From Lophium mytilinum (lineage: Eukaryota): 64,000 bases of DNA. Numbering within the stretch: position 1 is the stretch's first letter; the number at the start of each line of letters is the position of its first letter. Made by a program: the position numbers and the translations under genes. The stretch spans positions 761,765 through 825,764 of the forward strand of contig MU004186.1 of NCBI GenBank assembly GCA_010093605.1, in the 5' to 3' direction. Below are positions 46,318 to 55,885 of this stretch, piece by piece. The notes beneath the pieces are model-generated. The model saw only the letters and a list, made by a program, of their open reading frames with translations. It made no database searches and had not been told where the DNA came from.

Positions 46318-46582
46318 CAGTGCGCCTCCTTCGTGTCTTTGAGAACGCCGCCCGGTCAAGCTTTACTGCGGTGCTACACTCGTTTTTCAGCATCTTCATG
46401 CACCCACACTCACTCATTCTTTTAATTTTTGCATAGTTCCAGCCCTTGTGGCTAGTCACTCGTTAATACACCTTTACACTCGCCGTTTGCTGATCCAGTG
46501 TGGTCCAAATACCGCATTAAGCTTTTCCCCAGTCAACAAACAAATCAGCCACCTCCACAAATAGATAACGGCTATCGTCACC

Positions 46583-49123
46583 ATGTTGACTTCTTCGTAT
46601 TCCCTAATTTTTGCTCTGTTCTCGGTTGCGGTCGACTGTTCACCACTTCCTAAGGCACTCGTACCGCGTCTCCAGCAACTAGATGGCGAGACGGTGCCCG
46701 ACCGATTTGCGTTCAACGATGCCGTTCCCCTCGCCAGGACTGGGTGGACCGCTGTAGCCGACAGCACTCAGGGTGGAGATGTAGCCAGCAGAGTCCTCGA
46801 TGGTAACGCGAATACGCTATGGCATTCCGAGTACACTCCCGCGCTCAAGGCCCTTCCCCATACCATCACCATCGACATGAAGAAGAACAACTGGATCAAT
46901 GGATTCTCCTACCTACCCCGTCAAGACACCAGCAACAACGGTAACATTGGCCAGCACACAATCCAAGTGAGCAAGGACAACACCAACTGGCAACAAGTCG
47001 CCCTTGGCACGTACGGAAACACCAAGCTCGAGAAGAAGACCCTGTTCTCCTCTGTTCAGGCACGCTATGTACGAATCACTGCCTACACGGAAGCCCAAGG
47101 AACCAACCTTGCGTACACGAGCGCAGCCGAGATCAACATTCTCAGCGGACCAGACCCAATTCTCCCACGAGACACCTGGAAGGTCAGCGCAGACAGCGCG
47201 CAGGCTGGAAACGCGGCAAGCCTAGCCATTGACGGCGATGTCGACACGAAATGGCACACTCCCTTCACCGGTGGAAACCTCCCTGGCTATCCCCATACCT
47301 TCACTATTGACCAAGGCTCCGTGACCGCTGTTTCTGGCTTCAGCTACCTTCCTCGACCGGACGCGTCAGGCCCCAACGGACGTGTCGGCAAATACATCAT
47401 CCAGTACACCAACAACACGAATACTTGGGCTGATGCTGCCACTGGCACTTGGGTTGACGACCCAAACCCAAAGACCGTCACCTTCCCCGTGCACTGGGCA
47501 CGCTACTGGCGCCTCCGCGCTCTCAGCGAGGCTGGCAACCGGGGCCCCTGGGCGAGTGCCGCAGAGATCAACTTGCACGACGGCAGCTCCAAGGGAGTCA
47601 AGACGCCACTGCCGGCTAGCTTAGGTCAATGGTCTGAGACGATCGACTTCCCCATCGTCCCAGTTGCTGCTGCTGTACTTAGCAATGGTAAGTTGAATAG
47701 CAAAAGAACATGATAATTGAATTACGCTAACAAACTTGCAGGCAAGGTTGTGACATGGTCCGCACAGTGGGCGAACGCATTCGGCGGAGGAACGGGCCAG
47801 ACTCAGACTGCCATCTTCGATCCGGCGACCGGCAAGGTGTCTCAGAAGATTGTCACCAACACCAAGCATGACATGTTCTGCCCGGGTATCTCAATGAGCG
47901 CTGACGGAAAGGTCGTTGTCACTGGCGGCAACGATGCTGCTAAGACCAGCATCTACACCGTTGCCAGCGACGCGTGGGCCTCAGGTGCCAACATGCAGAT
48001 CAAGCGTGGCTACCAAGGTCAGACTACGCTTTCCGATGGTCGCATCTTCACCATCGGTGGCTCCTGGAGCGGCGGATACGGCGGTCAGGACGGTACCCCT
48101 TTCAAGAACGGAGAAATCTACAGCCCGGGCGCGAACACCTGGAAGCTTCTCTCAGGCGCCAATGTCAAGAAGATCCTCACCCAGGACGCTCAAGGACCCT
48201 TCCGCACCGACAACCACGCCTGGCTCTTCGGCTGGAAGGGTGGCTTCGCTTTCCAAGCTGGCCCATCCAAGCAGATGAACTGGTTCGACATGAGGGGCAA
48301 CGGTGTCACGACATCCGCTGGCAACCGCGGCGACGACGCAGACGCGATGAACGGCAACGCCATCATGTACGATGCCGTGGCCGGCAAGATCCTCACCATC
48401 GGTGGTGCAAAGGACTACCAAGAGACGACCGCGACCGCCAACGCTCACATCATCACTCTAGGTGGACAGGGTGGCGCAGTTACCGTCACCAAGCTCACAT
48501 CGATGAAGTACGCTCGCAGCTTTGCCAACAGTGTTGTCCTTCCCGACGGCAAGGTTCTCATCATGGGTGGTCAGCACTTCGCCAAGCCCTTCTCTGACGA
48601 TACCGCCGTCCTGTACCCCGAGCTCTGGGACCCAGCCACTGGCAAGTTTACCGTCATGAACCCGGCCAACAGCCCCCGCAACTACCACAGTGTCGGCGTG
48701 CTGCTGCCCGACGGCACCGTCTTCTCCGGTGGCGGAGGACTCTGCGGCTCCTGCACGGCCAATCACTTCGATGCTGAGGTCTTCAGGCCCCCGTACCTGT
48801 TCACTGCCTCCGGCGCTCTGGCTACCCGCCCAACCATCACCAAGGTCTCGGCTACCACCGTCACCGTCGGTGATAAGATCCAAATCACAACCGGCGGCAC
48901 CGTCACCAGCTTCTCGCTGATCCGCATGGGCTCGGCAACGCACTCGATCAACACCGACCAGCGCCGCATTCCCCTGACTCCTACCAAGACCGCGAGCGGT
49001 TACACCATCACGGTGCCTGGCGATTCGGGTATCGCGCTGCCCGGCTCCTGGATGCTGTTCGCCATCCAGAACGGCGTTCCTAGCGTGGCTAAGACGATTA
49101 TGATCAAGGCAAAGCCGATTTAA
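46583..49123 (+). CDS. gaoA: Secreted galactose oxidase (AA5_2 copper radical oxidase) with two tandem CBM32 (F5/8 type C) domains, 2 exons
   Basis: Signal peptide, then two CBM32 repeats (LDGNANTLWHS...YLPRQD; IDGDVDTKWHT...YLPRPD). Kelch propeller has HDMFCPG (Cys), RGYQ (Tyr), GGSWSGG, RNYHS (Tyr-His) and ATHS (His). Intron at about 47688-47741. Confidence 0.92.
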
Positions 49124-50101: not shown

Positions 50102-50914
50102 TAACCAAAGAGTAGATTGCGTGCATGTTAAGACAAAGATTCGCGAGAAGCGCACGGGGAATCCGTCGCCATTGTTCAACTGTACCTTGCAGGGTTGGCG
50201 TAGAGACTACTAGAACCCGTTTTCTAGGGTTATCAGGCCTCAAATATACCTTTTCATACTATGTGGCTTCCGGATACGAAATATGATTCATGCCTTGATG
50301 CCTCTTAAGTATCATGTATAGTGATAGAACAGAAATGTGGTTGAAACGAGATGCAAATGTCCCGAAATGCACCTGATTTCCCGACCTGCAATCAAGTAGA
50401 ATAACACTTTGCTTTCATATCAGGATGGCTTGAGTATCTAATTAGTATAGACGCTTCTGACGTGTGAAATCTGACGTGACGAATGTTCTACAAATGAAGG
50501 ATGAAGAAGGCGGAAATTGAACAACGTGCAATTCGACCGAATCCATTCGGGTGATAATAGTCTTTCTTGGAGCTAAACTGGATGGTTTGACACTGCCTGT
50601 CTTCTAGCTGAACACGATCAGTATCCGAGAACGTCGTCTAGGAGGGGAAGGATCTGCTTTTTGAGCCTTCACGGAAATCATGTGGTCTGTGCTTCGCGCC
50701 CCTGGCCGATGCTAGGGGCAGTCCGCAGCCTGGCAGCACAGCACTTCGTCTTACTCTGCGCTTTCCACGACGATTAGTACTCTGTCTTTCTATCTTTTCC
50801 ATCACTTGAAGACTCTTATAACTGCTTTTGCGAGTGTGTCCTAGAAGCCTGGCTTTCACACACGCTCGGTAATGCTCTGTCGATGAATCTCTCTTCGTAC
50901 AGCCTTGCTTCAAC

Positions 50915-52174
50915 ATGACAGATTGCAAGATTACTGAGGCTGGGGACTTCATCATCAACATCACTCAGCCGCAACAAAAAGCGGTCCTTCAAGCCAAGGA
51001 TTGTTTAAAGCCGCCACAGATCCAGATCGAAAGCCGCTCATTGAACTTGAAGCGGGCTATGCGAGAGCTGGTGTGCCGCGGTGATGAGGTGGAGATGAAA
51101 ACACGATCGCATGCCATCGATCGACAGCTCGAATTAGATGCATGGGAGTTGATTATGGAACGTAGAGTCCTCCTCCTCGGTAGCAAGAGCAGTGGTAAAG
51201 ACGTGATTCTCAAACAGATGAGGATTCTACATCCGAGCGGAGACACTAGGGAAGAGCTGGAATCGCATCGGATCACTATCTACAAGAATCTCATCGACTC
51301 TGCGAAAGCTCTGGTCGGAGCTATGGATCAACTGAACATAATCCCAGACACGGAGAAAACTCGAAAGCATTTAACTTTCTTGAAAAATTTGAAATTCTAC
51401 GCTGATCCACAGAAGCCCTTGGGAACCGAAGTCGGCGAATCTATTAGCGCTCTGTGGAATGATCCGTGTACTGCAAGGTTGATGGAGCACTCGACCGGTT
51501 TCTTTCTCTTAGATTCAGCACCATAGTCAGTCACCAAAGCTTTTCTATGGACATTGCTGTGACTCACAACTTGTAGTCTTTTTCATGAAGCCCGTCGAGT
51601 TGCTAGCCCTTATTACATCCCAAGCGAGGAAGATGTATTCCGCGCTGGAAGAAAAGTAACCGGGTACCATGAGACTCGCATTGCAATGGACCAATTGAGT
51701 ATACGTATTTTCGATCTCGTGGATCCAAGGACAGTCAAAAGAAAGTTGATGCCCTACTTCAAGGACTTCACAGCTGTTATCTTCGTAGTGGACCTGGCAT
51801 GCTATGACCAAAGTATACTCGGAGACTCATCGTATAGCGAGTTGATGAACGACTTGATATATTTCGACTCAGTCGTGAACTCCCGCTGGTTCGATGGCCC
51901 CTCGATGATACTTTTCCTCAATAACGTGGACAAATTCAAGGAGAAGCTGGGGAGAAGTCCACTTTCAAATTACTTTCCGGATTACAACAGTGGAAACGAC
52001 GCAAGCAAAGCCAAAAAATTTATTCTCTCCCGCTTCGACCAAATTAGTCGCGGTCGTCTCAACGTGTACTCCCATTTCACCCAACCTATGGACACATCTA
52101 GCATACGGCAAGTGTTTGCGGCCGTGAGAGAGACCTTGCTTAATCACGTGCCGGTACCTAGTGGGAAACTTTGA
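50915..52174 (+). CDS. Divergent heterotrimeric G-protein alpha subunit (group III Gpa2/GanB/Gna3-derived) with degenerate GTPase motifs, 2 exons
   Basis: VLLLGSKSSGKDVILKQMRILH, TIYKNLIDSAKAL, FFLLDSAP/YLF (intron 51526-51576 keeps frame), FDSVVNSRWF, ILFLNNVDKFKEKLGRSPLSNYFPDY and VFAAVRETLL. Start codon is uncertain. Confidence 0.85.
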
Positions 52175-52802
52175 AAAATATGCCTCTGCTCGAGGTTCTC
52201 CAGAGAGGCTCATTCGACTTCTAATGAGAGCCCCGACTCTTCATTGGTCTATGTGATCTGGACAAACGCTGCTTTCTGACGTACCTGAATATCATCAGAT
52301 CGAGCAATCTATGTTTACTGATATGGGAAGCAAAGCAAAGGACTCTTCGTTTCTTTACTTGAAGCGGACGTCCTTCCAATCTTTTACTCGGCAATCTTGG
52401 TCTATTTGATCACGTGTAAGCCTACACACCTCATAAATTGGATAAAAGACATGGGAAAAATACTGCGTCTCTTCAAACACACAGCATCCATAACTTGATG
52501 AGCGTTGGAGTAGCGCATCACTTGAAAGGCGCGATATGGAGCGAAGTGATGTTTTGCCGCCAGGAGAACTCGGGGGTAAGCCATTCACCTTAGGAGTCCC
52601 TCGGAAAACCACGGCTACCCAATCCATATAAGCCATTACATCATCCATGACTGAACCGCATCATTGATAGGTCGCAAGACTGGCCTGCGAAAACAAATTT
52701 CTCTTACACTTCATGCCATTATACCTCGAGTGGGGCCCCCTATCAAGCTTCCCTGCGCCGCGGACTGTCTACAACTAGAATCGCGGCTGCTGCTCTCGCG
52801 TT

Positions 52803-54691
52803 ATGGACGAAGAGCAGACAATGAGACAGATCATCCGCCGTCTGCAAAGACGTGTCGAAAATTTGGAGCGGGACCAAGACGAAGCATTGGAGCGGCTTGC
52901 TGTTGTTGCAGCCGACCTCCATGAAGTCAAATGGACGCTTAACGTATGTTCAACTCGGAATAATTACTAGTAAATCCATAACTCATCAAGAGAACCTAGG
53001 ACTCCTTCCGAGCTTTAGGAGAGCTCGTCTCCAACCGACCGTCATCCCCACCTGCAATCACTCCAGAGCCCGCCCCGGAGCCCGTTGCTGCGCCTGCGCT
53101 CGAATCCAGCCCTGTAAACCCCGCCAGACCTGCTCATGAAAACACTCCCACTCCGAATGTAGAGGCTACTCAGGTCGAAGGTCCAGTAGCGCCAGAGATT
53201 GTGACCACTGCTCGCTTTGGGATAGACGCGATCGCGACTAGTGGGGTTGCAACGAAGAGCAACGCATCGACTACTTCTTCACCGAGCCCACCTTTCCTTA
53301 AGCAAGAGGAATCGAGCAATGACCAAGCTGCGGAGGCCATCACGATCTCATCGGATGAGGACCTTCCTCAGGAGGCAGAGGCGGTAGTACCTGAGCCTTC
53401 ACGCCGTCGTCGCTTTAGTCTAGCCAAGTTTGGGACCCATAGTCCGTCTTCGCCACGGGATGACTACCATGATTCTCGAGGTCTAGAGGGGGACTATACT
53501 GATTCCATTCACTACGACACCTATGAGGCGACTGCTAAACTTGAGAAGGCTTCCCCTGAAGAACCTCAAGCCGTCGCATCTTCTAGTCGAGTCACTACCA
53601 AAGCGCCAATCCCTCGTAGCACAGGCGGTCTCACTCCGCCTAGAAACAAGCGAGCTTACATGAGTAGGCTGGAGAACTACGAAATAATCATGCAGGTGGA
53701 GCAAGACGACTGGCGCGAGTACCACTGCTTCATGTGCGGAGGAAACGGCCGTAAGACAGCTGCCAGTCCAGACTTCCAGTTTCTCAAGGGCATCATCGGC
53801 ATCCGAAATCACTTGCGGGACGTCCATTCCATTCGGCTCAACACGAAAGAAGCTATGGAACAGTGTCTCCTCCGGAAGTGGCCGCTGCATGAAATAGAGT
53901 CTCTCGTCAAAGGAAGTCCGGATGCTCGTGCAGTGTCTCTTAGGGATTGTGCTGAGTTTGAAGTCCCACTGGCGGACAACCCGTTCCTCGTTCAGCAGTC
54001 TCCTACCAAGACGATCGTCACCGGGTCTACCGCTGGCGTTCGCAATCACGCTGTCGCCACTGAAGCTTCTACCGGACAGAACACATTAGGTGATGACCGC
54101 ATCGAGATTCCAGAGTGGCTGGGCTGCATCATTCCATGCGCAGACGGCACTTACGCCGAGCTTAGATGTGCTATCTGCGGTGCAAATACTAGACCGAAGG
54201 CGGGTCCCAGCGATGAACCCTTCTACTTCAAAGGAATCCATGGCCTCAGGTACCATCTGGAAAAGGAACACCGCCTCTTTGCTCCTACGACTGCGGCGAA
54301 TAACTGGGTCGTTAAGTTGTGTGCAAGACGTGTTGTCCCGGAAGAGCAAGTGATGGAATTGGTTGCAAACGGCAAAGCGGCGGCCGCAAAGACTAGTAAG
54401 AAGCTTGCAGTATCGTGTTGCGACTGTTTGCTAATATATAGAAGTCCCGCATAAGATGATGCCAACGGCGTCAGAGCAGAGGGAACCGGGAAATGTTCGC
54501 GCTGGTGGTAAGTGCCCATCTTAAGTGCAGACTGTACGGTCTGGGGCTAACGACGAGAAGGGCGCGATACGCCTCGGTCGCAGTTGTCCGGTCGCAAGAG
54601 AGCTGTAGGTGAGCAAGAAGGCTTTAGTAATTCTAGGAGCCGTGGCAAACGCCCCCGCGACTACAGGGGAGGAGAAGCTTCCCAGCCATGA
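52803..54691 (+). CDS. Hypothetical nuclear protein: N-terminal coiled coil, two atypical C2H2-like zinc-binding repeats and a basic C-terminal NLS-like segment, 4 exons
   Basis: Exon 1 MDEEQTMRQIIRRLQRRVENLERDQDEALERL, intron ~52944-52999. Repeats CFMCGGN...FLKGIIGIRNHLRDVH and CAICGAN...YFKGIHGLRYHLEKEH. Two further frame-preserving introns, then GRKR...RGKRPR. Confidence 0.65.
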
Positions 54692-55240
54692 TCGTCAATC
54701 TGACGGTCATGTTGCTCCTACGCGTTCAGTATCAAAATCAAGGAACCTACCTCAACCTTGACATTGCTAAAGCACTATCTTTCTGCAGTGGTCAAGACGA
54801 CCACCACGCACACTACCAGCAGTCACATAAACCTTCAAAACAGCATTCCCAAAATGCACAATCTATATTCTTTAACTTCCTCACTTATTCCTTTGCGTCT
54901 TTAGTACTACGCCCCAGCCTAAACCTTAGCTCTCTACACCCCCTTCGCTTTCATCCTCTATCACACCCTAACATAAGCCTATGCACGCTCTCTTATCACT
55001 ACTTGGGCTGTCTCCATAGGCTTCCAAGATCCCAAACGAAACGTAAAATTCAACATCCAGGAAACTAAGCTGCCTCTGTTCCCCCAGTACCCGTAGCTAG
55101 GCTACTGCTACTAGTAGAATCGAGCAAGCAAAAGCTAAACTTGAACACAACGATATAAGAGCCCTCAATTAAACGCCCTGTTATTGTAATCTCTCCACCG
55201 TCAACGTCGACGACGTCGATGCCAACGACACAAACCACAA

Positions 55241-55885
55241 TCATTCCGAACCTCCCATCTCCTCCACTGGCAGTACCGTCGTCATCGGCAACACAGGTGT
55301 CAGTGATACCCGCATCGTCTGTCTCAGCGGTAGTGCCTTTGTTCCGCCCTTCGCCGGTGACGCCGTCACGGTAATCGTCGTCACTCGGCTCGAGTGTGGA
55401 GGCGTGAAGACGATCGGCAGTCCACCGACTCTCTCACTAGTCGCGACCCCGGATCCCGGATCAGGGTCCGCGGAGGGCGGCGGGTCGTGAACTGTTGTTG
55501 TAGAGATTGCCGTGATGGTTGCGGTGGTGATCATCGTTGGATTTGAAGGTGTGGTGAAGGTGGATATGGGTGTAGGCGTGGGCTTGGGCGAGTGCTTTGT
55601 GCGTAGTCCGATTGCAACGCTGGTAATCGTTACGACGGTGAACAAGAGGAAGACGGTTAGTGCGATGTGGGCTTTGCGGCGGCGGGCGTGGATGGCGGGG
55701 ATGGTGGGAATATAGGGGCGGTAGGGAAGAGGTGGGAATGGGGGCGGAGGCGGACCAGGATAGGGCGGTGGTGATTTGTTGTCGTCGGGGATTGTGATAG
55801 TTTCGAAGGTTGAAGTATGGGAGTAAGGGTCTAAATGGTATGAGGGAGTTGGGTAGGCTAGATAAGTTGGTGGGTTGGGACTCAT
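55241..55885 (-). CDS. Hypothetical single-pass membrane protein with a PPxY motif and Thr/Pro-rich tail
   Basis: SPPPYPGPPPPP, then RRRK, a TM helix (IALTVFLLFTVVTITSVAIGL) and a Thr-rich segment. Confidence 0.6.
   Translation of the reverse strand: MSPNPPTYLAYPTPSYHLDPYSHTSTFETITIPDDNKSPPPYPGPPPPPFPPLPYRPYIPTIPAIHARRRKAHIALTVFLLFTVVTITSVAIGLRTKHSPKPTPTPISTFTTPSNPTMITTATITAISTTTVHDPPPSADPDPGSGVATSERVGGLPIVFTPPHSSRVTTITVTASPAKGGTKALPLRQTMRVSLTPVLPMTTVLPVEEMGGSE

Follow-up and report, generated by a model that had tools for sequence, protein, structure and literature searches.

A 64,000-nucleotide stretch of the Lophium mytilinum genome (assembly GCA_010093605.1, contig MU004186.1, positions 761,765 to 825,764 of the forward strand), called the window below, carries at positions 50915-52174 (+) a two-exon gene of the G-protein alpha subunit (G-alpha) family, whose frame of 402 codons is intact. 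In the predicted product all five nucleotide-handling motifs, the G boxes, are altered. Judged from its sequence, the protein cannot work as a switch driven by GTP: it lacks residues that bind Mg and phosphate, take part in catalysis or stack on guanine, and its nucleotide-handling residues are incompatible with a normal switch. According to its nearest matches and its intron, the gene arose by DNA-level duplication of a fungal group III G-alpha gene (GNA-3/GanB/GpaB type). Its product may have been retained as a nucleotide-independent pseudo-GTPase, a proposal to which we would give about an even chance.

The canonical forms of the motifs were taken from the group III proteins of Parastagonospora, Tothia, Microthyrium, Pyricularia and Aspergillus, and all positions given here lie on the plus strand. 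In the P-loop (G1, 51179..51202), GSKSSGKD is found in place of GSGESGKS; the Lys is kept, but the Mg-binding Ser has become Asp, the second Gly has become Lys and the Glu has become Ser. Switch I (G2, 51641..51664) reads RAGRKVTG where canonical proteins have RARTKTTG, with the catalytic Arg replaced by Gly and the Mg-binding Thr by Val. The segment comprising G3 and switch II (51713..51748) reads DLVDPRTVKRKL instead of DVGGQRSERKKW; neither Gly is kept, the catalytic Gln and the Trp are gone as well, and the core of the motif (51713-51727) is DLVDP instead of DVGGQ. G4 (51920..51931) is NNVD for NKVD, Asn272 standing for the Lys and the Asn and Asp being kept. In G5 (52079..52096), TQPMDT replaces TQATDT: the Thr, the Asp and the Gln typical of group III are kept and the Ala has become Pro. 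Finally, strand β4 has FVVDL for FCVAL, with Asp228 encoded at 51791..51793. Asn272 and Asp228 are both marks of a wider degenerate group, described below.

Considering the 22 G-box and switch II positions at which the top residue reaches at least 90% in 57 diverse canonical G-alphas, 11 are changed in the window protein. Switch II is the most eroded segment. Only 3 of its 15 residues match the invariant canonical sequence, the Trp has become Leu, and the canonical His-Cys that follows it reads Pro-Tyr. Some of these losses (Trp to Leu, His to Pro) are found in Lophium only, since the ortholog of Mytilinidion retains Trp and His. In none of G1, switch I, G3 with the switch II Trp, or G4/G5 does the window protein have the form of a working GTP switch. 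The features that mark the ends of group III proteins are also absent. The C-terminal tail is NHVPVPSGKL where canonical members end in KDSGIL, and the MGxCxS lipidation signal is missing. Neither candidate start, MTDCKI... at 50915 or MRELVC... at 51059, has a Gly at position 2, so that N-myristoylation is excluded. An earlier note on this DNA, made from its letters without database searches, had read the five G boxes, the C-terminal tail and the lack of a lipidation signal in the same manner, and all of these readings are present as it wrote them.

A still-working switch with unusual chemistry may nevertheless be envisaged, in which Asp would serve for Ser at the Mg site and Arg181 for the catalytic Arg. 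The Gly-Lys of the P-loop, the Asp of G3, the Asn and Asp of G4 and the Thr and Asp of G5 are indeed kept, and an Arg stands one residue after the lost catalytic one. However, both the phosphate-sensing Gly and the Gln of DxxGQ are lost, as are the Mg-binding Thr, the guanine-stacking Lys and the Ala of G5. Furthermore, in relatives of the same group the P-loop is even deleted. Altogether, this possibility appears very improbable.

Membership of the G-alpha family is clear from the profile search, where PF00503 of Pfam matches the 354-residue form of the protein with 275.9 bits (cut-off 48.8) over profile positions 2-332 of 333. When exon 2 was used as a protein query, the best 120 of 649 matches (E<=1e-3) comprised the protein itself and 119 others, with 52-56% identity. 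Among those listed matches, the named ones are canonical group III proteins (GNA-3, GpaB, Gpa2), and one, the 588-residue P0086, is a degenerate form extended at its N-terminus. Over the full length, identity to fungal group III G-alphas, which are the nearest canonical matches, is 49-52%.

The intron of the gene gives a second line of evidence for this origin. Canonical group III genomic loci were recovered from metagenomes with P0105 as the query. In three of them (L018, L025 and L073), inspected base by base, an intron lies at the identical site and in the identical phase (after DSAP, TA is followed by GT...AG and then C), and, of the 14 genomic loci examined, two others show a break in the tblastn match at this residue. 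The other canonical introns, near residues 42, 243 and 323 of P0105, are missing from the window gene. As the gene still has this ancestral intron in its original place and phase, the duplication occurred at the DNA level, and a processed retrocopy is rejected. Repeat-induced point mutation (RIP) is likewise rejected as the cause of the divergence. The TpA/ApT index is 0.63 and the (CpA+TpG)/(ApC+GpT) index is 1.22, far from RIP values by the usual thresholds. The G+C content of the gene is 47%, as compared with 53% in the window. No second G-alpha locus was found when the 64-kb window was searched.

The organization of the gene is simple. The main open reading frame (ORF) starts with the ATG at 50915-50917 and stops with the TGA at 52172-52174. 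The coding part of exon 1 (50915..51525, +) encodes the N-terminal helix, the P-loop and the helical domain, and scores 83.8 bits against the Pfam G-alpha profile. The coding part of exon 2 (51577..52174, +, including the TGA) encodes the Ras-like domain from linker 2 to the C-terminus, with 171.9 bits. Between them, the sole intron (51526..51576, +), 51 nucleotides long and reading GTCAGT...TAG, is in phase 2 and splits a Tyr codon after its second base, just behind DSAP. An annotated L. mytilinum protein (P0003) is identical to the product of the window gene over its 354 residues. Its database model begins at the second in-frame ATG (51059), where MRELVC aligns with the canonical start MGxCMS. 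The in-frame leader between the two starts is 48 residues long and has no Pfam match.

Transcript data come from contigs of one public run, X1, labelled "RNA? (a guess)", in which 93% of the sampled words were present. Within the 10 kb examined, X1 contigs skip six GT..AG introns and thus stem from spliced RNA. One contig of 4732 nucleotides spans 50756-55696 and joins 51525 to 51577, that is, exactly at the predicted junction. Since it begins 159 nucleotides upstream of the ATG at 50915, the 402-codon ORF lies inside the transcript. The depth of this contig is 26.9, as compared with thousands for neighboring genes, but contig depth cannot rank expression. As far as the contig (record 3 of the run) reaches, the 5′ untranslated leader is therefore 50756..50914 (+). 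Two tiny upstream ORFs can be read in this leader, with ATG at 50872 (4 codons) and 50883 (11 codons). The second ends in a TGA at 50916-50918 that shares bases with the main ATG (ATGA), and such a layout would be compatible with termination-reinitiation. The earlier note had described a spliced ORF free of stops and frameshifts that keeps the G-alpha scaffold, had compared it with group III proteins, and had named the junction across 51526-51576 as a point to be checked in RNA. The junction is now seen directly in one transcript contig, and the reading of an intact, spliced G-alpha paralog is supported.

The altered state is not private to L. mytilinum. In a search of 1.84 billion representatives, an ortholog (P0124) was found in Mytilinidion resinicola, which belongs to the same family as Lophium (Mytilinidiaceae). 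It is 60-61% identical to the window protein, its motifs read GSESSGKD, DIVDL, NNYD and TRPTDA, and 64 derived residues are common to the two proteins. Because the derived motifs are shared, the degenerate state is older than the split between Lophium and Mytilinidion. Another degenerate G-alpha-like protein of L. mytilinum, P0330, is encoded elsewhere in the genome; it shares 40% identity with the window protein and has its own ortholog in M. resinicola (P0327, 67% identity). This second pair is even more degenerate, with GADHKGKK in the P-loop and DSGSA in G3. The models of P0124 and P0327 both lack 20-40 residues at the conserved intron position, which may reflect either a prediction artefact or real damage.

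Beyond this family, degenerate G-alpha-like proteins were found in Monosporascus, Ilyonectria, four Fusarium species, a Xylariales species, Phialocephala, Cudoniella, Venustampulla, Pseudogymnoascus, Glutinoglossum and Pseudovirgaria, a set that spans at least four classes of Pezizomycotina. Three substitutions recur in these proteins. Among 30 of them, 28 have Asn for the Lys of NKxD (as do all 18 of a smaller set), 28 have Asp for the β4 Ala of FCVALSEYDQ, and 29 have lost the P-loop Ser. The window protein (Asn272, Asp228) and P0124 carry both the Asn and the Asp mark. Most of the degenerate relatives are 560-650 residues long and have an N-terminal extension of 230-300 residues, in which sub-threshold matches to PF17111 (PigL_N) were obtained for 7 of the 12 extended proteins scanned. 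One protein of 1046 residues combines a patatin domain with PigL_N-like and G-alpha-like regions. The extended or degenerate set includes P0125, P0086, P0310, P0344-P0351, P0380, P0395-P0399 and P0388. PigL_N is a domain found also at the N-terminus of fungal STAND proteins. Several of the extended proteins are named "GNA-3" in databases despite the loss of their switch residues. An upstream N-terminal domain lost from the window gene itself was also considered and rejected: tblastn with five of the N-terminal regions gave nothing below E=0.5 in the window, hence no PigL_N/HeLo-like remnant upstream of the gene.

The relationship of the Mytilinidiaceae pair to this set was examined with two trees, one calculated with FastTree from 148 rows and one with IQ-TREE under the posterior mean site frequency (PMSF) approach from 45 rows. 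The window protein and P0124 are sisters with a support of 97-99. They group with the extended degenerate members, with values of 80-90 in the Shimodaira-Hasegawa-like approximate likelihood ratio test (SH-aLRT) and of 89-92 in FastTree, and a branch with a support of 86 separates all degenerate rows to one side. The approximately unbiased (AU) test gave p=0.029 against a placement of the pair with the canonical copies of Dothideomycetes. Against an independent origin of the pair beside all Pezizomycotina canonical copies it gave only p=0.085, with long branches involved. Taken with the two diagnostic residues, the tree suggests, without securing it, that the window protein belongs to an old degenerate clade; long-branch attraction or convergence could possibly lie behind the grouping. 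It may be added that P0178, P0257 and P0201, G-alphas located elsewhere in the tree, also show SGKD P-loops or NNxD. Such substitutions may arise repeatedly, or these rows may be misplaced.

From these data, the window gene may tentatively be viewed as a free-standing member of a hitherto undescribed, Pezizomycotina-wide clade of pseudo-GTPase domains derived from G-alpha, in which the Asn/Asp pair would re-wire the guanine pocket and which would mostly be fused to cell-death-type modules (PigL_N/HeLo-like, once patatin). We hold this reading to be possible, though the odds are not in its favor. In such a model, the G-alpha fold would serve as the regulatory part of an MLKL-like or NLR-like protein, and the copies of Lophium and Mytilinidion would be detached regulatory subunits or decoys, either of such a system or of GNA-3/cyclic AMP (cAMP) signaling. 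In the open-access literature, subscription journals lying outside the search, nothing was found that links the term pseudoGTPase to G-alpha, describes such a group of fungal G-alphas or reports a fusion of G-alpha to HeLo-like or PigL_N domains; the papers that have the term together with heterotrimeric G proteins deal with small GTPases. The top open-access matches contained no G-protein paper on Lophium mytilinum. The wider group is apparently undescribed.

Whatever the deeper ancestry of the gene, its retention has to be judged from its pattern of change. Neutral simulations were run with indels left out; including them would further lower the chances of avoiding a stop. The chance that no stop appears was 0.10 for the 33 certain replacements on the Lophium branch and fell to 0.023 when 55 were assumed; none of 300 runs reached the full 41% divergence without one. 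The replacements are more conservative than neutral ones (mean BLOSUM62 -0.11 versus -0.59, standard deviation (sd) 0.13, z about 3.7), and replacements of one hydrophobic residue by another make up 0.67, compared with a neutral 0.53 (sd 0.06). Outside the G boxes, the share of retained residues climbs from 41% to 83% across bins of increasing family conservation (p=0.006). A 20-column scan detects a cold spot at switch II, with 4 of 20 columns retained, and a hot spot at 267-291, with 19 of 20, each at p of about 0.02. Together with the contrary results given next, these observations indicate that constraint has been greatly relaxed with respect to the canonical gene and that some purifying selection persists. 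The evidence for present-day purifying selection is modest.

A number of results weigh against retention. On the Lophium branch alone, the conservativeness signal amounts to about 1.5-1.8 sd. The p-values of the scan are uncorrected for the four window sizes used and reach about 0.02 at one size of the four. Canonical group III proteins are at least 95% invariant in 228 columns, of which 94 (41%) are changed here, and within these canonical-invariant columns retention does not follow how conserved a position is in the family (p=0.71 for all of them, p=0.21 outside the G boxes). Changes are not significantly enriched in the G boxes as compared with other near-invariant sites (11/22 versus 6/24, Fisher p=0.13), and a runs test gives no clustering (p=0.74). 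Identity between the two orthologs does not track conservation (p=0.13). In the model of P0124, about 40 residues are absent at the intron site, and a disruption could be concealed there. No ortholog closer than the canonical copies was seen outside Mytilinidiaceae among the matches listed.

Several of these points would be expected of a slowly decaying duplicate, that is, a copy that lost its function after duplication and has drifted from then on with selection weak or absent. It would still be transcribed, and its frame still open, by chance or through very weak selection. The almost uniform spread of the changes, their indifference to family conservation in the canonical-invariant columns (p=0.2-0.7), two orthologs that differ at 40% of sites regardless of conservation, the residues lacking from the sister-genus model, a no-stop chance of 0.02-0.10 on the terminal branch and the lower G+C content of the gene all fit such a history. 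On the other hand, the 402-codon frame is open and its splice junction is intact and used, the total divergence was never reached without a stop in the neutral runs, and the replacements are more conservative than expected. In addition, the 64 derived residues common to the second genus date the altered state before the split, with both copies annotated as coding, and the two diagnostic residues are common to 28 of 30 distant degenerate relatives. Decay is the main rival reading and has to be kept as a serious minority possibility.

If the protein is retained, its predicted structure gives some indications on how it could work. The AlphaFold2 (AF2) model of P0003 (m3e1fa1d18952), built from a 56-sequence alignment, has a mean predicted local distance difference test (pLDDT) score of 89.7 and a predicted template modeling (pTM) score of 0.78. 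All elements of the Ras-like and helical domains are predicted, with lower pLDDT values of 78-79 around the switch regions. The Foldseek matches listed from the Protein Data Bank (PDB) are all G-alpha chains or complexes, with E of about 1e-27. Because superposition on solved G-alphas gives a template modeling (TM) score of only about 0.6 and a root mean square deviation (rmsd) of about 6 Å, the arrangement of the helical and Ras-like domains in the model may differ from that in the solved structures and be open. The best-kept surfaces are αA of the helical domain (71-91), the end of α3 (FDSVVNSRWF), the region from β5 to αG (267-297; ILFLNNVDKFKEKLGRSPLSNYFPDY) and that from β6 to α5 (328-342).

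Considering these features, the following mode of action may be imagined for a retained pseudo-GTPase. The protein would bind no nucleotide, or do so only weakly, and would be fixed in a single conformation. Asn272 and Asp228, at the ends of the neighboring strands β5 and β4 in the former guanine pocket, would probably stabilize the empty site. Membrane anchoring is unlikely because the N-terminal lipidation signal is gone, and the protein would be soluble. It would act through its near-canonical surfaces, namely αA, the end of α3, β5-αG and β6-α5. In this way, it could be a nucleotide-independent partner of, or competitor for, a protein that normally recognizes GNA-3, rather than a partner depending on switch II, as would be the case with Gβγ. 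The favored candidate would be a protein recognizing the face from α3 to αG, which is the weakest step of the proposal.

Sequestration of Gβγ or of regulators of G-protein signaling (RGS) would be a different role for such a protein. Switch II is the main contact surface for Gβ and RGS in the solved heterotrimers and in the RGS4 complex (1GP2/1GOT/1AGR). With switch II more eroded than any other segment of the window protein, a decoy of this kind is not favored. The earlier note had put forward a nucleotide-independent pseudo-GTPase and had given Gβγ or RGS sequestration as an example of its function. The first part is supported at the level of the residues, which are incompatible with a switch, and by the ortholog with the altered motifs, whereas the second sits badly with a switch II identical at 3 of 15 positions, in which the Trp has become Leu and the His-Cys Pro-Tyr. 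It is true that an N-terminal helix is predicted (residues 3-33), with part of it, KxRSxAIDRxLE, kept, and that a decoy has been proposed in plants for Arabidopsis XLG2 (bioRxiv 10.1101/795088). Against it, some of the switch II losses are private to Lophium, the Mytilinidion ortholog keeping Trp and His, and no lipid anchor is present to co-localize the protein with Gβγ. Altogether, a decoy for Gβγ or RGS is improbable, less so than a still-working switch.

Two observations concern the surroundings of the gene. The X1 contig that carries the window gene continues over 52175-55696 (+), through a downstream ORF on the same strand (53000-54454) without Pfam match, and its downstream part skips three further GT..AG introns (52944-52999, 54396-54444 and 54507-54559). 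Its running into the next gene could be due to overlapping untranslated regions (UTRs), to read-through or to chaining during assembly. Upstream, a galactose-oxidase-like gene occupies 46565-49123 (+). Two F5/8 type C domains and kelch repeats are found in its product, which also matches the glyoxal oxidase N-terminal domain and the GO-like E-set domain. Its one intron (47687-47740) is skipped in a transcript contig of very high depth.

G-alphas are textbook molecular switches, and the fungal ones are treated as three conserved groups. A G-alpha fold that is kept, transcribed and spliced without any of the switch elements would be the fungal counterpart of the decoy idea developed for plant XLG proteins. 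The degenerate group is annotated as "G protein alpha subunit" or "GNA-3", and because degenerate proteins carry those names, G-alpha counts in surveys of fungal genomes would be inflated and confused. If the fused HeLo-like and patatin forms are real and functional, they would point to a new type of regulatory module in the proteins of fungal cell death or allorecognition. The Asn/Asp pair offers a concrete structural hypothesis for the stabilization of an empty guanine pocket. If, instead, the gene is only decaying, it still shows how slowly an expressed duplicate can lose its frame.

It is useful to compare the window protein with the systems it resembles. With the fungal group III proteins (GNA-3 of Neurospora, GanB/GpaB of Aspergillus, Gpa2-type), it shares the Pfam family, the fold and the site and phase of an intron, as well as the Gln of G5 and long identical blocks such as FDSVVNSRWF and RSPLSNYFPDY. 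It departs from them by the alteration of all five G boxes, the absence of the MGxC signal, a receptor-coupling C-terminal tail reading VPVPSGKL instead of LKDSGIL and the retention of only one of the canonical introns. It has also evolved very much faster than the canonical proteins, which are almost invariant. PseudoGTPases in general combine a GTPase fold with degenerate G motifs and are presumed to act as scaffolds or regulators; fold and degenerate motifs are both found in the window protein.

Arabidopsis XLG2 offers a plant parallel. XLG2 is described as a decoy G-alpha whose GTPγS binding is 100-1000-fold weaker than that of canonical G-alpha and which keeps binding to Gβγ and to the RGS domain (bioRxiv 10.1101/795088). 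The likeness lies in a G-alpha fold without residues for nucleotide binding and hydrolysis, for which a nucleotide-independent role is proposed. However, the two have independent origins, in fungal group III for the window gene and in a plant lineage for XLG2. Moreover, the window copy has no long N-terminal extension, and its switch II is heavily eroded. Nearer at hand are the other degenerate proteins of Pezizomycotina, most of which have an N-terminal PigL_N-like extension that the window gene does not have. With these proteins, the window protein has in common the Asn in place of the NKxD Lys, the Asp in place of the β4 Ala and the loss of the P-loop Ser.

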